Below are positions 16,471 through 41,824 of a DNA stretch of 64,000 nucleotides, piece by piece. Every line of letters begins with the position of its first letter. Position 1 is the stretch's first letter. The notes beneath the pieces are model-generated. The model did not search any database. It had not been told where the DNA came from and worked only from the letters and a program-made list of their open reading frames with translations. The DNA lies in assembly GCA_031370005.1 (NCBI GenBank), contig JANMPT010000003.1, positions 1 to 64,000 of the forward strand. The letters run 5' to 3'. The stretch comes from Bdellovibrionales bacterium (lineage in GTDB: Bacteria; Bdellovibrionota; Bdellovibrionia; Bdellovibrionales; Bdellovibrionaceae). Both the position numbers and the translations under genes were made by a program.

Positions 16471-17715
16471 TTAGTTTTTAATTCTTAATGCCTGCGCCGG
16501 CTGAATTTTACTAGAGGTTCTCGCCGGGTACCAAGCACCACCAAGACAGACTAAAAAGCCCACCACCAAAACACCCCAAATAAGATTTGTATCCACAAGA
16601 GCCGGGATCTGGGAGTCATAATAAATATCTGGCAGGATATTTACTGGGTTTTTTTCAATATAAAAACTAATAGCCGTACCAAAGATCACTCCTGGTATCA
16701 GTCCAAAGGCCGCGAGCATCATTCCCATTTGCGTAAATATTTTCACTGTGCGCTTATCAGAAAGCCCTAGGGTTTTTAAAATCGCGATGTCACGTTTTTT
16801 CTGAGACATCAAAAGTGCCAATACTGATAAAATAGAAGTCGCAGCAATCAGTCCAGCAAGACCTAAAAATATGCCAATGATCAACTTCTCAAGTCTAAGT
16901 GCAAAAAATAAAACTGAATTACGATCCATCCAAGTCTCAGCCGTCACATCACTAAATTTTTCAACTTCTCGCTTAAGGTCATTCAGATTTTTTCCATCCG
17001 GAGTCCAAACCTCGATACCAACTTTGCGGCTGGCCGCCGAGTCTAAACTATTCAAAGTTGCTCCTCGCTGGTAAAAAACAAACTGAGAATCTAAATCCGA
17101 AAGATTGGTGGTTATGATTTTGCTAACCCTCACCTTTTCAAACTTTGGCGACTCCCCAGGGGGCAACAACAAACCCTCCGGTGGAACAACTGTGAGGTAA
17201 TCCCCTTCAAAAACTCCCAAAGAACGAGCCAGATCCACGCCCACGATAACCTCCCCTTTTCCGGGAAGATCCTCAGAGCTCCAGAACTGAACATTATCGC
17301 GCTTTTTATGCTCTTCAGTTTGATGGATTTGCTCCACCATAAATTTTAAACTCTCTTCACTAACTCCACGAGCGATGGCCCCGTGGAACTGTCCGTCCAT
17401 GGTGCGCAAAATCACGTCTTGAGTTTCATATACATAAGATTTATTTAGTGGATTTTCTTTGAGTCTTTGAAAAACTGGGTGAAGCTCCAGAATGGAGCCC
17501 TTGTTAACGCCATTCACACTCACATACAAGTGAGGCTCAAGCGAGAGAATACGTTTATGAATGCTAGCGTTCATGCCATTCATAACAAACAAAACGACCA
17601 AGAAAGCAGTCACACTCAAGGCAATAGCACCCACAGAAAGCCAAGCTAGACGTTTAACGAGAGCACCGGCACGTTTGGAAAAAATGAAATGACTAAAAAA
17701 TTCTCGGACGAGCAT
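16471..17715 (-). CDS. LolC/E-family lipoprotein-releasing ABC permease
   Basis: VLFVMNG, K.RDIAILKTLG, PA..A....PAQALR; FtsX-type topology. Confidence 0.85.
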   Translation of the reverse strand: MLVREFFSHFIFSKRAGALVKRLAWLSVGAIALSVTAFLVVLFVMNGMNASIHKRILSLEPHLYVSVNGVNKGSILELHPVFQRLKENPLNKSYVYETQDVILRTMDGQFHGAIARGVSEESLKFMVEQIHQTEEHKKRDNVQFWSSEDLPGKGEVIVGVDLARSLGVFEGDYLTVVPPEGLLLPPGESPKFEKVRVSKIITTNLSDLDSQFVFYQRGATLNSLDSAASRKVGIEVWTPDGKNLNDLKREVEKFSDVTAETWMDRNSVLFFALRLEKLIIGIFLGLAGLIAATSILSVLALLMSQKKRDIAILKTLGLSDKRTVKIFTQMGMMLAAFGLIPGVIFGTAISFYIEKNPVNILPDIYYDSQIPALVDTNLIWGVLVVGFLVCLGGAWYPARTSSKIQPAQALRIKN

Positions 17716-31593: not shown

Positions 31594-31679
31594 GCGCGGG
31601 TGGTGAAATGGTAGACACGCAGGTCTCAGAAGCCTGTGGCCGAAAGGCTGTGGGGGTTCAAGTCCCCCCTCGCGCACCA
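31594..31679 (+). tRNA. tRNA-Leu(CAG)
   Basis: Acceptor GCGCGGG/CTCGCGC, anticodon stem CAGGT/GCCTG with loop CTCAGAA, long variable arm, GGGGG-TTCAAGT-CCCCC, encoded CCA. Confidence 0.95.
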
Positions 31680-33355
31680 ATACCTACAGTACTCGAGCCG
31701 GCACGGGTTTGAGGAAATGGGATCACAGAACCTTCTTTTTTCAAATTTATAGAAATTCCATCGGTGCCGGTTGCTTTGAAGGGTGACGAAGTTTCTTCAT
31801 CTTGTGGAGTTTCTGCGCCCTTTGCGGGCGCATACATTCCAATTTTGATTTTGGTTGGCTGAATCTCGATAAATTTAATCAGGTTTGCGAAAATCGGTCT
31901 TTGATTTTCAGGCTCTGAAATCTCAAGTCTATTAATAGTCTGCTTAATCCTATCTTTAAGACCATCTTCGTTAATTTGCTCAGACATAATCTGCATCGAT
32001 TGAGATCTGAGTTTTTCTTTCGCAAATTTCAAATCGGCGAGCTTCACATTCAATTGTTTGATCTGCTCGTAGAATTGATCGGCGGGAAGATCTGCCGGCA
32101 ACTCTGAAACTCTTTGCACAAGATTTGTGATCTTCTTGGCCGTTGTTTGAATTTCCGTGTCCATCACCTTTTGACGTGATTGCATCTCAGGCCAGTCACT
32201 TATGGACTTTTCTTTGTAAATGGCAATCCACTTTTCTATAAGGCCAGGTTCATTGAGAAGTTGTTTTAAGGACTTTAAAACAATCTCCTCTAACCGGTAA
32301 GCTCTCACGTTCTTGACCTGGCATTTAGGTTTTAGCTCCTGGGCCAGCGGATTCTTGATCTGCGAATGCCCATAGTAAAAATGCTTTTCTTTCCGGCCAA
32401 TGCCGGATTTCCCACCCATAGCTTTGCCACACTCACTGCATTGAATGAGTTCCGTCAGTGGAAAGGCATGATTTTTCCAGTCCTCAGGTTTATATTTATT
32501 TTTGTTCTTATGAAGGCGCTCTTGTACTTTGTTAAAAAAGGCTTCCTCGATGATTGGTTTCCAAACGGCAGAGACCAGCTCTCGATTTCCGTCAACATGA
32601 GCCACTTCGCGCTTTCCTAGGTAAATGGGGTTTGTCAAAAGACTTTGCAGAGTGTCCACGGTAAAAACATTACCGCCCTTATCAAGGCCGTGCTTGTTGG
32701 TGTACTTTTTGTTAAAGATTCCTTCTTTAATCAATCTGATTTGGGTCTTTCGGACTGATCCTTCCTCTATAAAAGTCTCAAATATTTTTATAACATCTGC
32801 CGATTCAAGATCGTTAATGAGCAGTTCACCTTTGTTCTTGGGGTTTCGGTCATATCCTAGGGGGATGCTTCCACCGTTCCAAAGGCCACGTTTTGCCCGG
32901 CTAAGCCAGTTGGCAGAAATTCTCTCAGCGGTTTGTTTGCGCTCGTACTGGGCATAATTTATGAGGTTAAAAACCATCATCTCGCCCGATGCAGTTGTGG
33001 TATCAAAAGATTCTCGAAGGGTGATGAAGCTGGCCTGATGCTTTTTTAACAGATCCCTGATGTCACAAAAATCACGAATATTACGGGATAAACGGGACAG
33101 CTCAGTTGCCAAAATCAAATTCACACGGCCGCCCTGGACGTCGGCTAGCATTCTTCTGAACTCAGGCCGATTCATATCTTTGGCAGATCTACCTTCGTCA
33201 CAATAGAATTCTACAATGTGACCCCAGTTGGCCTTGAGCTTGTTTTGATATTCCACATACTCAACAATTCGATTTTTCTGCGAGACCAGGGAGCCATCTA
33301 CAATTCTGGCCTGCTCTTCCGTCGATACCCGAATGTACACTCCGCAACGCTTCAT
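31658..33355 (-). CDS. Large serine recombinase (resolvase + recombinase + zinc ribbon + coiled coil)
   Basis: YIRVSTEEQ catalytic Ser, RPEF..ML, LSRLSRN, GLWNGG..PLGY, L.NPIYLG, CSECG zinc ribbon; last codons and stop lie in the antisense of tRNA-Leu. Confidence 0.95.
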   Translation of the reverse strand: MKRCGVYIRVSTEEQARIVDGSLVSQKNRIVEYVEYQNKLKANWGHIVEFYCDEGRSAKDMNRPEFRRMLADVQGGRVNLILATELSRLSRNIRDFCDIRDLLKKHQASFITLRESFDTTTASGEMMVFNLINYAQYERKQTAERISANWLSRAKRGLWNGGSIPLGYDRNPKNKGELLINDLESADVIKIFETFIEEGSVRKTQIRLIKEGIFNKKYTNKHGLDKGGNVFTVDTLQSLLTNPIYLGKREVAHVDGNRELVSAVWKPIIEEAFFNKVQERLHKNKNKYKPEDWKNHAFPLTELIQCSECGKAMGGKSGIGRKEKHFYYGHSQIKNPLAQELKPKCQVKNVRAYRLEEIVLKSLKQLLNEPGLIEKWIAIYKEKSISDWPEMQSRQKVMDTEIQTTAKKITNLVQRVSELPADLPADQFYEQIKQLNVKLADLKFAKEKLRSQSMQIMSEQINEDGLKDRIKQTINRLEISEPENQRPIFANLIKFIEIQPTKIKIGMYAPAKGAETPQDEETSSPFKATGTDGISINLKKEGSVIPFPQTRAGSSTVGIGARGGT

Positions 33356-33546
33356 GCGACCTCGCTTTCGATAAAGTCCTTTTGAATGGCCTCAGTTTTA
33401 TCATGGTCATTGCCCATTTCAAGTAGGCATTTTATGACGCGAGCTACGCGCTCGTTATAATCTTCCTCAGTTATTTTAATCTTCACGACCGCCACATTTT
33501 CTTCGTAAACGTAATCATTTTTAGAACCCATTATTTTAATCCCCAC
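33352..33546 (-). CDS. Small hypothetical protein coupled to the recombinase (possible directionality factor, unproven)
   Basis: GGAGG upstream; ATGA overlap with the recombinase start. Confidence 0.6.
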   Translation of the reverse strand: MGIKIMGSKNDYVYEENVAVVKIKITEEDYNERVARVIKCLLEMGNDHDKTEAIQKDFIESEVA

Positions 33547-33626: not shown

Positions 33627-34616
33627 TTATCCACATTTCTCATAACCCCTCTCCGTCACATCTTTATCAGTCCCAGATCCCTCTTCTCCGGCCACAGCTT
33701 CTGACCCCAGTCCACCTTTCGTTGGGGGAGTGGGGTCAGAAGCGATCAGTGGCCGGTTCCCAGGTTCTGTTTTTTCTGAATTTATTTGTGATGGAGAGGG
33801 GTTATCTGCAATTTCCGCGTTCAAATTTTGGTCGGCTTTGTTGCTCACCCCTTGAGTAGCTTTGTTTCCCTCTGATTTCCACACATCAAAGGCCAATTCG
33901 CCAAATGAGACAAAGCGGCTATCTTTTAAAAAGAAAACTTTTGAGTCTCTTTTATTCTTAAAAAAGTCATTAAGGTGGCTCACAAAGATATGCTGCCGAT
34001 CATTTCTAAAACTTTGCTTTTGCCAACCGGCTTTAAGTGCATGGACAAGGCCCTTGTCTTTGATGAAGTACCAAATAATATCAATACGGTTTTTGTCAGC
34101 GTACTCAGTGAATGTTTCCCGGTATCTCAAGTGGCTTTTCTGAGTAAGCTCTAGCTCCACCGCAATCACCAAAGCTTTGCCATTCATCATCTCCGCCATG
34201 AGCCCATCTGGGATGATTTTGTTACGGGCTTTTTTATAATCATGTCTGAAAGCTCCTGCCTTCATGACACATTCGGAAGTCCACTCAAGGCCAAGATTCA
34301 TTGCCTCAAAGGCAAGTCTCAAGTCATTCAAAAGCACATCATGTTCAATGGTGTTGCGGTTTGAAAATTTAAATGAGTCTTCTAAACCGAGAAGTCTTCG
34401 GCCGCCAACATCAAGCCGCCAGGTGTTTGTGCCATTCTTTAATGTCACTCCGCGAGAGATAAAACGCCCTTCCTCTAAAAGGCGCAGCCGCTTCATGACA
34501 GTGGTGTGGGCAACACCCTTAAAAAAGAGAGCCCCAATTTGACGAGTCGAGAGGACTCCAAATTTATAAATACTGGCAATAATTTCTTTGTCCCTTGCCT
34601 GTAACTTCATCCCCAA
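33627..34616 (-). CDS. Replication-relaxation (Replic_Relax) family protein
   Basis: N-terminal wHTH (L..RD..I...YKFGVLSTRQI...RL..L), EHD.LLNDLR, IPDG and AVELELTQKS..RY PD-(D/E)xK-like motifs. Confidence 0.8.
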   Translation of the reverse strand: MGMKLQARDKEIIASIYKFGVLSTRQIGALFFKGVAHTTVMKRLRLLEEGRFISRGVTLKNGTNTWRLDVGGRRLLGLEDSFKFSNRNTIEHDVLLNDLRLAFEAMNLGLEWTSECVMKAGAFRHDYKKARNKIIPDGLMAEMMNGKALVIAVELELTQKSHLRYRETFTEYADKNRIDIIWYFIKDKGLVHALKAGWQKQSFRNDRQHIFVSHLNDFFKNKRDSKVFFLKDSRFVSFGELAFDVWKSEGNKATQGVSNKADQNLNAEIADNPSPSQINSEKTEPGNRPLIASDPTPPTKGGLGSEAVAGEEGSGTDKDVTERGYEKCG

Positions 34617-35340: not shown

Positions 35341-35709
35341 TTTAAGTGACGAAACTTCGTCACTTAAAATTTAGGCTCGCCCTCGGTTTTGAACCTCAAT
35401 TGAATCAATTCACCAACTTAGCAACGACGAGACCTCGACACGATTTGACGAACATTCGTCGCACACGACTTTTTAAAATTGCAAGGCCATGCCAGCATGA
35501 CCGAAAAGTGATTTAAGTTTTGGGAAACTCAAACGAATATTGAGATCCATCTCAATATGATAGGGCTGAAAAGTTTCAAATAATTTGAAACTTTTTTTTG
35601 GGTCTTGAATGAAATCATAGACTTGAGTCATTTCAAATTTCTTGAAGACTTTCAGGAAATTTGAAACCTCAAGCTCTGGCTGGGTTTTTCGGGTGACGAA
35701 ATTTCGTCA
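35341..35709. repeat. Cluster of palindromic sites in the non-coding region
   Basis: TTTAAGTGACGAA-AC-TTCGTCACTTAAA (35341-35368), GACGAA-CA-TTCGTC (35447-35460), TGACGAAATTTCGTCA (35694-35709), ATATTGAGAT-CC-ATCTCAATAT (35537-35558), AAAAGTTTCAAA-TAA-TTTGAAACTTTT (35569-35595). Confidence 0.85.
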
Positions 35710-35826
35710 TTTCAGAGGTCGACTTTACCGGTAATCGCAGTGGGTATAAGTGCTTAAAATTGTTGAGGTAAATCGGCTACGTTTTTAGACTAAAATTTCG
35801 ATGCCGATGAAATCAATTTATCCGTG

Positions 35827-38291: not shown

Positions 38292-38534
38292 CTATGCTTT
38301 CTTTCTAAAAACGGTCTGCTCAAGCTTTTCTAGACGGTCCTCTACAGAGTCATGGGACTCAATAGATTTTCTGAGAAACCAATTTAAGAAGGTTTGGTAT
38401 CCCATTCCTTGTTTCTCGCCCTCAGATTCCAACCATTCAATGACCTCAGCATCAAGCCGAAAAGTCTTGATGACTTTGATGTCTTTTGCTTTTTTACCCC
38501 TTTTTGCCTTTGAGAAATCATATTCATTTTTCAT
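38292..38534 (-). CDS. BrnA-like antitoxin
   Basis: MKNEYDFSKAKRG, T.RLD.EVIEW, GYQT.LN.FLR. Confidence 0.9.
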   Translation of the reverse strand: MKNEYDFSKAKRGKKAKDIKVIKTFRLDAEVIEWLESEGEKQGMGYQTFLNWFLRKSIESHDSVEDRLEKLEQTVFRKKA

Positions 38535-38537
38535 AAC

Positions 38538-38816
38538 TCACCTCGAAAGATATTGGTTTGACTCGGTTTTGGTGGCTGGTCTTGCAGAGATAATTCGGAC
38601 CCGCTCACCCTCAATTTTTTCACAATAAACAACCACTAACAAATTGGCCTTTCGTGATATCCCCAGCCTAAGCCATCTCTCTTCATCATGAGAGTGTTCT
38701 GGGTCTGGAGTTTCTAGGGCAGAATTATCAAGCCAAATGGTTATTGCCTCAGAAAAGCGAATCCCATGCTTTTTATAGTTGCTGTCTGCCTTGGTGTCGT
38801 CCCACTCAAAGTCCAT
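38538..38816 (-). CDS. BrnT family toxin (ribonuclease)
   Basis: FEWD.TK..SN.KKHGIRF.EA, HS.DEERW..LG, RIISARPAT. Confidence 0.93.
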   Translation of the reverse strand: MDFEWDDTKADSNYKKHGIRFSEAITIWLDNSALETPDPEHSHDEERWLRLGISRKANLLVVVYCEKIEGERVRIISARPATKTESNQYLSR

Positions 38817-38865: not shown

Positions 38866-39097
38866 TCATATAGTTGGTTTTAAAGCGTTTTGCCGCACAA
38901 AGGCCTCTGAAGCCCCAATGGCCCTCGCTGTTTTCCCGGAATTCCCATATTTCTTGATAAGCGTCAGCAGGTCGGCCGGCAAAAGGGCCTTCGGCTCCGC
39001 AACAACCTCAAATTCAGCTTGAAACACCGGCTCAGATCGAAATAAAGTGCTCGCAGAGATGGCGAGCGGTTCGTCTACTTCGGTGACTTTGGCACCA
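38866..39097 (-). other. Orphan reading frame: predicted displaced C-terminal tail of the serine recombinase (HTH-like end)
   Basis: Same frame as the recombinase across the GGT-GCN core; reads GAKVTEVDEPLAI...KKYGNSGKTARAIGASEAFVRQN. Confidence 0.6.
39068..39097 (+). repeat. att-like tRNA-end mimic, copy 1
   Basis: GGTTCGTCTACTTCGGTGACTTTGGCACCA. Confidence 0.65.
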
Positions 39098-39120
39098 TTT
39101 AACATTTTCAGTCACTTGTA

Positions 39121-39162
39121 CCAATACGGCGAATGGCTTTTTCAATTCAAATTCAATACTTA
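39121..39162 (+). repeat. 42-bp direct repeat, copy 1
   Basis: CCAATACGGCGAATGGCTTTTTCAATTCAAATTCAATACTTA, identical to 40718-40759. Confidence 0.95.
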
Positions 39163-39255
39163 CACCCTTCTAGCCCCTGATATACGTTGGACATATTTAC
39201 GACGGCTTTCGAAGTGCCGAGGGGCAAATGGCTAAGAAAGGCAGTGTAATTGATT

Positions 39256-39453
39256 TTAACGCCATTCATAGTGTCCCATGTGAGGTGTTTTTTTCAAATG
39301 TAATTTAAGGCCGTTGATATCTTGCTCAAGTTCAAGAAACTTTCGGTCCGCGAACTCTTGAGACTGCTCAAGGTTGTGAGTGTAAAGCCAGAATGCAGCC
39401 TCTTCTAGCTCAGCTTTGAACTTGTCGGATTCGAGGATTTCAAATGCTTGCAT
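39256..39453 (-). pseudogene. Truncated RelE/ParE-like toxin
   Basis: 65 aa directly after the antitoxin; ParE-like N-terminus (..AELEEAAFW..L...PHMG) that ends before the usual C-terminal strands. Confidence 0.6.
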
Positions 39454-39756
39454 TTAGCCGACGGCTTTCTTCGTTCTCTTTGCATTGAGGGCTCGTGTTT
39501 TGGCGCGATTCAAAGTGTCCTTTGTCGATTGGTCCGTGACACGACTCACTCGTCCTTGAGCAATATCAACAAGGCCAACAGTCAGCCCATGCAGCCTAGC
39601 AAGATCGAGCTGCATTTTCTCAAAAACGTCGGCATTAAGAAGAACGAAGGCTTCCCCAGATTTTCGAGTGATTTTAACAGGCTCAACCCTTGCGGCTTCC
39701 ATCCACTCTTTCATATTTGATCTGAAGTCATTGGCATTTGTTCTGTCCATAGACAC
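39454..39756 (-). CDS. Phd/YefM family antitoxin
   Basis: NANDFRSNM.EWM.AA..EPV.ITRKSG..FVLL; AGGAGG RBS. Confidence 0.88.
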   Translation of the reverse strand: MSMDRTNANDFRSNMKEWMEAARVEPVKITRKSGEAFVLLNADVFEKMQLDLARLHGLTVGLVDIAQGRVSRVTDQSTKDTLNRAKTRALNAKRTKKAVG

Positions 39757-39769
39757 CTCCTATTCTTAA

Positions 39770-39798
39770 ATAGTACACTTAACCGTACTGTTAGCCAA
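39770..39798 (-). promoter_or_regulatory. Sigma70-type promoter with AGTAC-N8-GTACT operator
   Basis: TTGGCT-N17-TACTAT on minus; inverted repeat at 39772-39789. Confidence 0.6.
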
Positions 39799-39895
39799 GA
39801 TGCTATTTTATCAGAAAAGTACCGTGTCTTGACTGGTAAAGCGAATACAACGTGATTGCATCCACTGTATAGGATACGTTTTATCCATTGCCAGA

Positions 39896-39925
39896 GGTTC
39901 TTCTAGCCTACGGCCGTGGGCACCA
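39896..39925 (+). repeat. att-like tRNA-end mimic, copy 2
   Basis: GGTTCTTCTAGCCTACGGCCGTGGGCACCA; same length and anchors as copy 1. Confidence 0.6.
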
Positions 39926-39979: not shown

Positions 39980-40291
39980 TTAGCTCGCCTTAGAAAAACT
40001 AAAACCAAACTCAAAGTGACCACCACAAGCGGCCGCTATGCGAGCCAACAGCGGAATAGACGGCACTCGCTTATCAGAACCACCCTCAAGTCTTGCAATC
40101 ACACTTTGAGTCGTTCCAATCAGTTTAGCTAATTGAGCCTGAGTTAAGTCAGCTTTCATGCGCGCAGCTCTAACCGCATGCGCGATTTCAGTTTTAGATT
40201 TTTCTTCTTCAAACTGAATACGAACTTCTTTGTCTTTTAATATTTTTTGAAAAAATGGCTTTGCTGATTTGTATGATTTTTTATTTTTCAT
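39980..40291 (-). CDS. HTH (XRE/HigA-like) antitoxin
   Basis: AARMKADLTQAQLA.LIGTTQSVIARLEGG..PS..LL.RIA.A. Confidence 0.9.
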   Translation of the reverse strand: MKNKKSYKSAKPFFQKILKDKEVRIQFEEEKSKTEIAHAVRAARMKADLTQAQLAKLIGTTQSVIARLEGGSDKRVPSIPLLARIAAACGGHFEFGFSFSKAS

Positions 40292-40623
40292 AATCCTAAA
40301 ACCTCTTTCATTCTTTTTTCAGCGATTTCAAGATCGCCCGTTGGTGTTTTCTGAGTTTTCTTTTTAAAAGCATGAAGCCAAACCATCGTATTTGTTTCAA
40401 CAACAACATAGGCTATGCGGTAGCTGCCGCTTGGTGTATTAAACTTTACTTCCCAGAGTTTACCGCGAAGCTGCCTAAACTGAACACGCGGACAACCTAA
40501 TCCATATTTTTCAATACCTTCAAAGACATCAGCAAAACGTGCTTGATCTGCTTTTGGCAGATCACTGATAAAATCTTCGATTGGGCTTCGTCCTGACGAC
40601 GTTTCGTAAAGAGCTACTTTCAC
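40288..40623 (-). CDS. RelE/HigB-like toxin (toxin-first TA pair)
   Basis: YET.SGRSPIEDFI..L, L.GKLWEVK, YRI.Y, LHAFKKKTQKTP..DLEIA.KR. Confidence 0.92.
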   Translation of the reverse strand: MKVALYETSSGRSPIEDFISDLPKADQARFADVFEGIEKYGLGCPRVQFRQLRGKLWEVKFNTPSGSYRIAYVVVETNTMVWLHAFKKKTQKTPTGDLEIAEKRMKEVLGL

Positions 40624-40658: not shown

Positions 40659-40717
40659 GATTTTTTTAATTTAGCTATTCTGCCCTACAAAGGCCTGACT
40701 AGCGCCGACCGTGTCAG

Positions 40718-40759
40718 CCAATACGGCGAATGGCTTTTTCAATTCAAATTCAATACTTA
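40718..40759 (+). repeat. 42-bp direct repeat, copy 2
   Basis: Identical to 39121-39162. Confidence 0.95.
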
Positions 40760-40994
40760 AGCCATTTAATATTGGGTTAGGAGAGTACATTATCACCCTC
40801 GACAATTTCTCGGAGCACATTTTGGGCAGCAATGACGTCGGACTCTGGGGTCCAATAGTCTTCGTAGCAGAGACAGTTCGCGCAGTGCGAATTTGCAAAA
40901 CAGCTGCTGATACAATCAAGGCATTTTAAGTGGCTATTTTGCTATGAATAGTTGTGAATTTGTATAGACAATAAATATCAAGTAAAATCATATG

Positions 40995-41474: not shown

Positions 41475-41749
41475 ATGGGAAAGAGCAAGACTGGGCAAAA
41501 AATAGTTTATATTTATGCCAATTGGGAGACGCTAGAAACTCCTCAGCTTACGGGATCTCTATTTGTAACCCTCTCACGCGGTAAAGAAATTTTTTCATTT
41601 GAGTATGATCCAAAATGGCTGAAGTCAAATTACGCCCACGATCTTGATCCAAATTTAAAATTTTTTGGCGGTCCTCAGTATCCTAAATCCGATCACGCAA
41701 ACTTTGGTCTTTTTCTTGATTCGTCTCCAGATCGTTGGGGGTTGATAAA
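41475..41749 (+). pseudogene. Truncated HipA toxin (N-terminal domain only)
   Basis: RGKEIFSFEYD..WL, LDP.L, FG.FLDSSPDRWG, after which the frame runs into tRNA-Ala antisense; kinase domain absent. Confidence 0.85.
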
Positions 41750-41824
41750 TGGTGGACCCAACCAGAGTCGAACTGGTGACTTATCCATGCCATGGACATA
41801 TAATCCCAACTTCACCATGGGCCC
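41750..41824 (-). tRNA. tRNA-Ala(GGC)
   Basis: Sense GGGCCCA...TGGGTCC-ACCA with G3:U70; anticodon stem TGTCC/GGATA with loop ATGGCAT; ACCAG-TTCGACT-CTGGT; D-stem weak (two G:U pairs). Confidence 0.85.

Follow-up and report, generated by a model that had tools for sequence, protein, structure and literature searches.

In the window, by which we mean the whole stretch of 64,000 nucleotides analysed here, two 30-nt sites lie 7.4 and 8.2 kb behind a tRNA-Leu(CAG) gene and, judging from their sequence, are the attR P-arm ends of elements that encode a large serine integrase and target tRNA 3' ends in Bdellovibrionota. We regard the anatomy itself as highly probable: attP lies within the integrase gene, and integration leaves the end of that gene, the tail, parked at attR. 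The true coding signal of the region is a helix-turn-helix (HTH) tail situated downstream of the site, and this tail is under purifying selection. The features are collected in Table 1.

Table 1. Features of the integrated element, its attachment sites and the neighbouring remnants (window coordinates)
Feature	Position	Strand	Remarks
tRNA-Leu(CAG), target	31594-31679	+	now B half of attL; ARAGORN
Extra tRNA-type motif, B 22-25	31649-31652	+	mirrored in P' 27-30
B-arm motif over the T-loop, positions 19-11 from centre	31655-31663	+	putative zinc-ribbon site; spacing as in PMC3783163
Large serine recombinase, 565 aa	31658-33355	-	Pfam PF00239, PF07508, PF13408
Probable crossover dinucleotide GC, tRNA positions 71-72	31674-31675	+	P/P' symmetry; shared core of tRNA-tail pairs
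P' arm, also last integrase codons (G-S-S)	31676-31705	+	motif 16-24 = 31691-31699
P' extra motif, positions 27-30	31702-31705	+	
64-aa ORF overlapping integrase start	33352-33546	-	candidate directionality factor
Replication-relaxation (MobC-like) protein, relaxase	33627-34616	-	PF13814 above cut-off; NF041423 below its cut-off
BrnT/BrnA toxin-antitoxin cargo	38292-38816	-	
Type-1 tail, 76 open codons from core in integrase frame	38866-39096	-	three-helix HTH end; no conserved start
Site 1, P arm + core of attR1	39068-39097	+	motif 39068-39076; centre 39092-39093
3' remnant (P' arm) from another family of tRNA-targeting serine recombinases, other frame	39094-39169	-	right arm of attR1
65-aa ORF after Phd/YefM antitoxin	39256-39453	-	no family match
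Phd/YefM antitoxin	39454-39756	-	
Type-2 tail, first 21 codons, then unrelated sequence	39862-39924	-	dead remnant
Site 2, P arm + core of older attR	39896-39925	+	centre 39920-39921
Gp49/RelE-like + HTH_3 toxin-antitoxin pair	39980-40623	-	
Second remnant of the other recombinase family	40671-40919	-	deletion-joined to last 15 codons of a third type-1 tail

Attachment sites and their integrase

Both 30-mers of the preliminary description are present where it placed them, site 1 lying 7418 bp from the tRNA end. Their last 6 bases are exactly common with the tRNA-Leu end and GGTTC lies 5 nt further out, so that the sites indeed keep the tRNA anchors in a segment 5 nt longer. The term 'tRNA mimic' is appropriate at the DNA level, where the sites copy bases read by the integrase, and does not hold for a folded RNA; a tRNA remnant or structured RNA was rejected on the sequence comparison, just 6 bases being in common with the tRNA end.

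Read outward from tRNA positions 71-72, the motif GAAC[C] occupies positions 15-19 on the tRNA arm and 20-24 on both the P' and the P arm. P and P' thus form an imperfect inverted repeat about the central dinucleotide. In the available text on large serine integrases, the zinc-ribbon motif spans positions 16-24 in attP and 11-19 in attB (Rutherford 2013, PMC3783163), and the +5 offset corresponds to this difference in spacing, as had been proposed. Across 24 attL junctions picked by protein homology alone, with the more distant tRNA-Arg row of L014 kept in, tRNA positions 11-19 match P' at a shift of +5 only, with an identity of 0.77 (0.07-0.37 at the other shifts of a 0-10 scan). Among the 22 junction rows of the motif survey, three are false hits, of which L020 accounts for two and another part of the window for one. 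GGTTC of the T-loop had also been suggested as the recognised motif: GTTC does fall within the shared motif, recognition itself being putative, and by analogy the zinc-ribbon domain would be the part that reads it.

As to the centre, the terminal identity between tRNA and tail reaches 6 nt or more in 16 of the 17 pairs compared; it is exactly 6 nt in 9 of them and 4-5 nt in none, the remaining pair being a mis-anchored row. The central dinucleotide follows the target, with GC for Leu/Arg and CC for Ser. On the host-side B' arm, GAACC with one mismatch allowed was found at 15-19 in 0 of 61 right arms; it lies at 20-24 in 6 of the 61, at least 5 of which read as integrase ends, i.e. tandem junctions. 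In a search for the empty attB site of the window's tRNA, four relatives of the same genus turned out to carry four different sequences behind the tRNA. The variant junctions of the L055 tail, the second L064 tail and L025:7844 (a 2-nt centre insertion, a right arm departing directly after the centre, and a changed centre, respectively) are useful for cut mapping.

The intact element runs from the tRNA to site 1 and comprises the integrase, the 64-aa ORF, the MobC-like relaxase, cargo, BrnTA and the tail. The integrase has 559 residues before the core, its last 6 residues stem from antisense tRNA, and a 51-residue variable linker (13 to 52 residues among relatives) precedes the core. Its catalytic domain scores 105.7 bits with PF00239, Y7, R9 and S11 being invariant among 20 relatives; PF07508 (recombinase) and PF13408 (zinc ribbon) are above cut-off, and C306, C309, H330 and C345 are invariant. 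A short ORF coupled to the integrase start recurs in 17 of 28 relatives, many of these ORFs ending in EAA/GAA; no family match was obtained for the one in the window. Strong inverted repeats within the element (33697-33743; 35344-35363 with 35693-35712) could be oriT or operator sites.

The pattern GGTTC-N18..22-CACCA occurs 3 times in the window against 0.35 expected, the third match being at 16516 with an N18 spacer. Over the whole genome the bare pattern is at background, with 7 matches at N20 versus 2-8 at other non-tRNA spacers; when the G of GCACCA is included there are 3 at N20 versus 0-2 elsewhere, and these three are sites 1 and 2 and a further tail, located on contig C114. In the 29 loci retrieved with the integrase as the only query (28 of them Bdellovibrionota or Proteobacteria bins), all 18 occurrences of the N20 pattern lie on the integrase strand, and any other spacer occurs at most twice except the N15 of the tRNA itself. 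An upstream tail is present on the integrase strand in 16 of the 29 loci, and in 12 of the 13 with at least 9 kb upstream. Matches to the pattern in the collection are accompanied by a tail in only 7 of 182 cases, none of these among the 63 viral loci. The link to the recombinase is thus real, yet the pattern alone is a poor detector.

Selection and fold of the tail

The preliminary description read codons 7-13 of the two sites on the minus strand as VDEPLAI and LEEPLAM and took their differences at third positions as a sign of translation. The reading is correct, and third positions account for 5 of the 6 differences; over the whole stretch of codons 1-13 they account for only 8 of 15. As an indication of translation the comparison finds no support, since within the 30-mer the family is frozen at synonymous sites, which reflects a constraint on the DNA site. 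The Val codon is GTA in all 62 type-1 tails compared, with 40 of 40 unique tails from a set of which 6 rows came from a pattern fixing the GTA/GAA bases (and the profile seeds from a looser one), and in 22 of 22 further tails anchored on protein motifs independently of that set. The Glu codon is GAA in 39 of the 40, in all 22 and in 29 of 29 type-2 tails, and the 'Pro' codon (codon 10) specifies His in 9, Pro in 8, Arg in 3 and Leu in 2 of the 22 independent tails (non-Pro in 14). The VDEP codons are frozen at synonymous sites while the 'Pro' residue changes. In the 29 type-2 tails GAA is likewise invariant and the residues at codons 3-8 vary; codon 11 is Leu in 26 of 29, spelled by five codons, and is the sole position of the 30-mer that behaves as a protein constraint. 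The Ala-Ile/Ala-Met match is conserved in neither tail family, and a conserved peptide motif or degradation tag was rejected because the residues are not conserved across tails. Sites 1 and 2 carry different tail types, that of site 2 being broken after 21 codons.

Coding constraint is found downstream of the 30-mer. In the 40-tail set, which left out five hits (three that lacked the anchor, one truncated at the end of a contig and one carrying a 2-nt insertion), the 30-codon stretch upstream of the core contains stops in 34 of 40 cases and the one downstream in 1 of 40; stops within the first 60 tail codons occur in 4 of 40, and the other two sense frames are closed in 40 of 40. The independent set contains none (0 of 22). 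The HTH core of type 1 has pS 0.78 and pN 0.31, with a median dN/dS of 0.23 over the 38 unsaturated of 630 pairs, type-2 tails have 0.20 (17 of 91 pairs), and codons 1-10 of type 1 have 0.80. The analysis of collected tails that had been suggested thus yields a dN/dS of about 0.2, indicative of purifying selection, with the signal placed downstream of the 30-mer; at the invariant residues of the C-terminal half of type-1 tails nearly every synonymous codon is in use. The suggestion that these frames are translated in the excised state is supported in so far as they would form the integrase C-terminus after joining of P' and P.

Tails comprise 70-95 codons in this family. Type 1 was detected in 93 of 384 genomes of the order and in 49 of a sample of 401 across the phylum, and its sequences fall into 226 clusters when grouped at 50% identity. 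Type 2 was detected in 114 of the 384 at E 0.001, a count that includes candidate weak matches. The two types are barely related (hhalign probability 37%), and both serve the same integrases.

The structural model of the tail has helices at 40-50, 53-60 and 64-71 with pLDDT of about 90; the turn glycine G61, S63 and F66 are conserved, as is an E-P-K-x-L stretch ahead of the helices. The model weakly suggests a three-helix HTH of the Cro/LysR/sigma-4 kind, all matches to named families being sub-threshold (Pfam, Foldseek, VIA, Atlas). Foldseek overlays it on N15 Cro with E 0.75 and an rmsd of 0.7 over 29 residues, a weak Cro-type HTH overlay, and its best VIA Z is 3.5. Searches of Pfam, NCBIfam, PDB sequences and Atlas returned no named family or solved relative of the tail, and the type-1 tail of the window has no Pfam match.

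A tail that is merely a small HTH gene beside attP, accidentally in frame, or a non-functional relic, appears very unlikely. Gene callers do annotate many tails as stand-alone proteins of 50-120 aa, and the window has an ATG three codons ahead of the core. That ATG stems from the neighbour's remnant, in-frame upstream ATGs exist in only 4 of 40 tails, and no start is shared: a start with a ribosome site was found in 8 of 62 tails, at scattered positions. In both tail families conservation begins exactly at the core, and the upstream sequence is unrelated and usually contains stops. With a dN/dS near 0.2, a relic is excluded. Directly behind the tail stop, visual inspection showed a promoter-like stretch followed by or together with a short gene in several relatives.

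Proposed role of the tail and natural fusions

We consider it somewhat probable that the long form is the efficient integrating enzyme and the shortened form serves stable residence. Integration at tRNA positions 71-72 would rebuild the tRNA, let the enzyme core (catalytic, recombinase, zinc-ribbon and coiled-coil parts) end with a few antisense-tRNA residues, and leave the HTH tail of 70-95 codons at the far end of the element. Where attP is re-formed, in a circle or a tandem junction, the tail would return in frame, here giving 559 + 76 = 635 aa. The tethered HTH would add DNA binding, its grip offsetting the motif-less host B' arm, and the full-length enzyme would be the form that integrates efficiently; the shortened enzyme would be weaker and keep the element in place, its excision being helped by a small factor. 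Phage Mx8, in its available description (PMC4701971), offers a precedent for a weaker truncated form.

Fused proteins of this kind exist in nature. In-frame P'-P junctions are found in L016, L025 (two), L065, L170, L287 and L309, and in the proteins P0001, P0002, P0005, P0008 and P0093. P0157 and P0160 are full-length fusions of 631 aa, and in P0158 the same enzyme ends in residues read from antisense tRNA. Another enzyme occurs with three endings: a type-1 tail in P0001, six residues of the tRNA type in P0161 and a type-2-like tail in P0162; in P0001, P0162 or both, the integrase is joined to a neighbour's tail. In the P0093 model a low-confidence disordered linker (about 340-382) is followed by a confident helical end (391-422). 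It is possible that every one of these natural fusions represents a tandem junction and not a circle. Contigs of the one public run that contains this DNA confirm the feature order at even depth (flat, about 11) and contain no circle joint; contigs drop rare forms, and the missing joint therefore says nothing on the absence of a circle.

A second family of serine recombinases uses the same tRNA core and motif in another frame (L296:17948-19498, L280:1-520, window 39094-39169 and 40718-40919) and adjoins tRNA-Leu directly in L280 and L296. Its own P arms have the same motif with tails of just 15-23 residues (4 cases), from which it follows that an HTH tail is not needed for tRNA targeting.

A 4-bp motif at positions 22-25 of the tRNA arm varies with the type of tRNA, reading CACG in Leu, CG[GA]T in Ser and CGAC in Phe/Met targets. 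Positions 27-30 of P' match the 22-25 of their own tRNA with an identity of 0.67 (71-96% per base), versus 0.29 for other types, and the P arm does not match (0.19). The second position of the recognition helix of the tail (helix 3) is Glu in 74 of 81 tails with the Leu-type core versus 1 of 9 with other cores, and the Ser-targeted tails of L014, L292, L293 and L297 all lack it; this result is a count, in which kin are not independent, the tail tree is poorly resolved and some labels of the tree test are mis-anchored. The tail HTH could thus be a target-selection module present only before integration, with the zinc ribbon reading the T-loop and the tail reading the 4-bp motif, a reading we regard as rather unlikely. 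If true, integration would cut off the target-finding part of the enzyme, and directionality and specificity would be gene-encoded and swappable. The extra motif is absent from both junctions of the divergent second integrase clade (L025, L278) and from the type-1 fusion of L287, so that the integrase core may instead be its reader.

The same helix bears on the possibility that the tail is a transcription repressor, its fusion on the circle shutting the relaxase-integrase operon or the cargo promoters and integration lifting the repression. The Cro/LysR/sigma-4-like fold and the interchangeability of two tail types are in keeping with this, and a linker of 13 to 52 residues means that the tail need not touch the synapse. 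Mycobacteriophage BPs has integration-dependent immunity, of which such a repressor would be the mirror. We nevertheless give the repressor a low probability: by eye, the sequence just downstream of 40 tails has nothing in common, a self-operator would not predict a recognition helix that varies with the type of target tRNA, and a separate repressor gene would be simpler.

The tail might also set direction by protein contact, docking on the zinc-ribbon/coiled-coil hinge and locking the enzyme in integration mode, the reverse of a recombination directionality factor (RDF). According to the available part of PMC11722253, RDFs act on the hinge and work when fused C-terminally through a flexible linker, and the conserved E-P-K-x-L is left unexplained by DNA binding. 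Such a switch seems distinctly unlikely, since large serine integrases of the ordinary kind have no tail and are unidirectional all the same, one docking site would have to suit two unrelated tails, and the most conserved part of the tail is the putative recognition helix.

Relation to known systems and history of the locus

By sequence comparison, the element has the domains and the motif spacing of a large-serine-integrase system, lacks the motif on B', and falls outside the DsiB, Ccr and Mx8 families. An attP within the integrase gene is itself already known from DsiB, the rumA ICEs and Mx8. The available sections of McMurdie 2011 (PMC3146451) proposed that DsiB, of the Dehalococcoides ssrA islands, may be fully functional only on the circle or beside an island supplying its 3' fragment. 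As described there, DsiB is a CcrB-like large serine recombinase encoded next to attL on the reverse strand, in tandem arrays; the 3' end of its gene extends into attL, so that the stop codon is supplied by the target, as we also find here. Its target, in contrast, is the tmRNA (ssrA), compared with tRNA-Leu in the window and Leu, Ser, Phe and Met tRNAs among relatives (no tmRNA target among the 29 loci); its DsiA, ParB and Mom module genes have no such Pfam match among the scanned ORFs of our element, and those sections show no conserved tail domain, selection test or motif spacing.

In the streptococcal rumA ICEs (Ambroset 2016, PMC4701971, as far as its available text goes), att also lies within the gene of a serine integrase, whose C-terminus changes on excision, and a functional difference between the two integrase forms was proposed; they differ from our element in a protein-coding target, a frame change and large conjugative elements, and no HTH tail is named in that text. 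Myxophage Mx8 likewise has attP within its integrase gene, and the accessible accounts state that integration swaps a 112-residue end of IntP for 13 residues and that activity drops (PMC4701971; cited PMC4383910), but IntP is a tyrosine recombinase and the swapped part has another fold, whereas ours belongs to the serine family. With the LI/A118 and SPbeta integrases the enzyme shares the three-domain build and the motif positions in attP and attB, as far as described in the available parts of PMC3783163 and PMC11722253; unlike these, it has the motif on one attB arm only, its B-P' match reaches B25/P'30, and its tail is gained and lost with recombination.

Staphylococcal CcrB is the best NCBIfam match of the integrase (E 7e-53), and the best plasmid matches of the integrase are staphylococcal recombinases, 29% identical. 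However, the CcrA/B/C equivalog scores of the integrase are 180 (CcrB), 110 and 67 bits against cut-offs of 900, 900 and 700, the target differs, and the element has no partner recombinase gene. Streptococcal IMEs of class 8, in the available part of PMC5357655, are similarly compact and combine a PF13814/MobC relaxase with a serine integrase; here the target is a tRNA, and no VirD4 coupling protein was found among the scanned ORFs.

In the open-licence literature we found no account of a serine integrase that recovers an HTH tail when attP is re-formed, of the T-loop as a zinc-ribbon motif, or of two interchangeable HTH tails, a target-tracking 4-bp attP motif or a target-varying recognition helix, nor any test of the McMurdie 2011 proposal of a full enzyme on the circle; according to a 2014 database paper, no targeting of tRNA genes was known for serine integrases (PMC4383910). 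Direction and target choice of large serine integrases are a live question for genome engineering, and the present family makes the idea of a circle-only enzyme testable, with the crossover, the arms, both protein forms and Leu/Ser/Phe/Met variants defined. Integrase genes mined from integrated islands are truncated, and screens may therefore miss the active form. Being dependent on one fixed tRNA arm and indifferent to the other, such an enzyme might serve as a bacterial landing tool.

The arrangement behind the intact element suggests that elements inserted one after another at the rebuilt tRNA end and that later deletions left the toxin-antitoxin modules in place. An integron- or shufflon-like cassette array was rejected, as truncated tails and the ends of different recombinase families are joined in the pieces between sites, in agreement with successive insertions and deletion. 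The type-2 remnant is 95% identical to L025 over 64 nt, followed by an abrupt loss of similarity. The series of tails might still offer alternatives to one integrase, but tail 2 is dead in the window.

Some further observations concern the surroundings. Behind each tail remnant, in the direction in which it is read, comes a toxin-antitoxin module (38292-38816, 39256-39756, 39980-40623). Two more type-1 tail remnants lie at G000:C114:6129-6371 and G000:C120:45513-45614, one with a stop and a frameshift, and contig C114 has a short integrase fragment behind a tRNA-Pro. In L286:4600-10100, at least 5 P arms or tails form an array with spacings of 0.7-2 kb, next to a small gene of resolvase type, and several right arms in L286, L283 and L296 share a palindrome-like stretch reminiscent of a resolvase site. 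An unusual tRNA-Ala(GGC) is present in two copies, at 41750-41824 (minus strand) in the window and at G000:C50:56834-56908, 95% identical over 95 bp; the window copy faces the tRNA-Leu and marks the border of the island region, and the end of an ORF that starts at 41475 and is HipA-N-like (weak PF13657) overlaps it.
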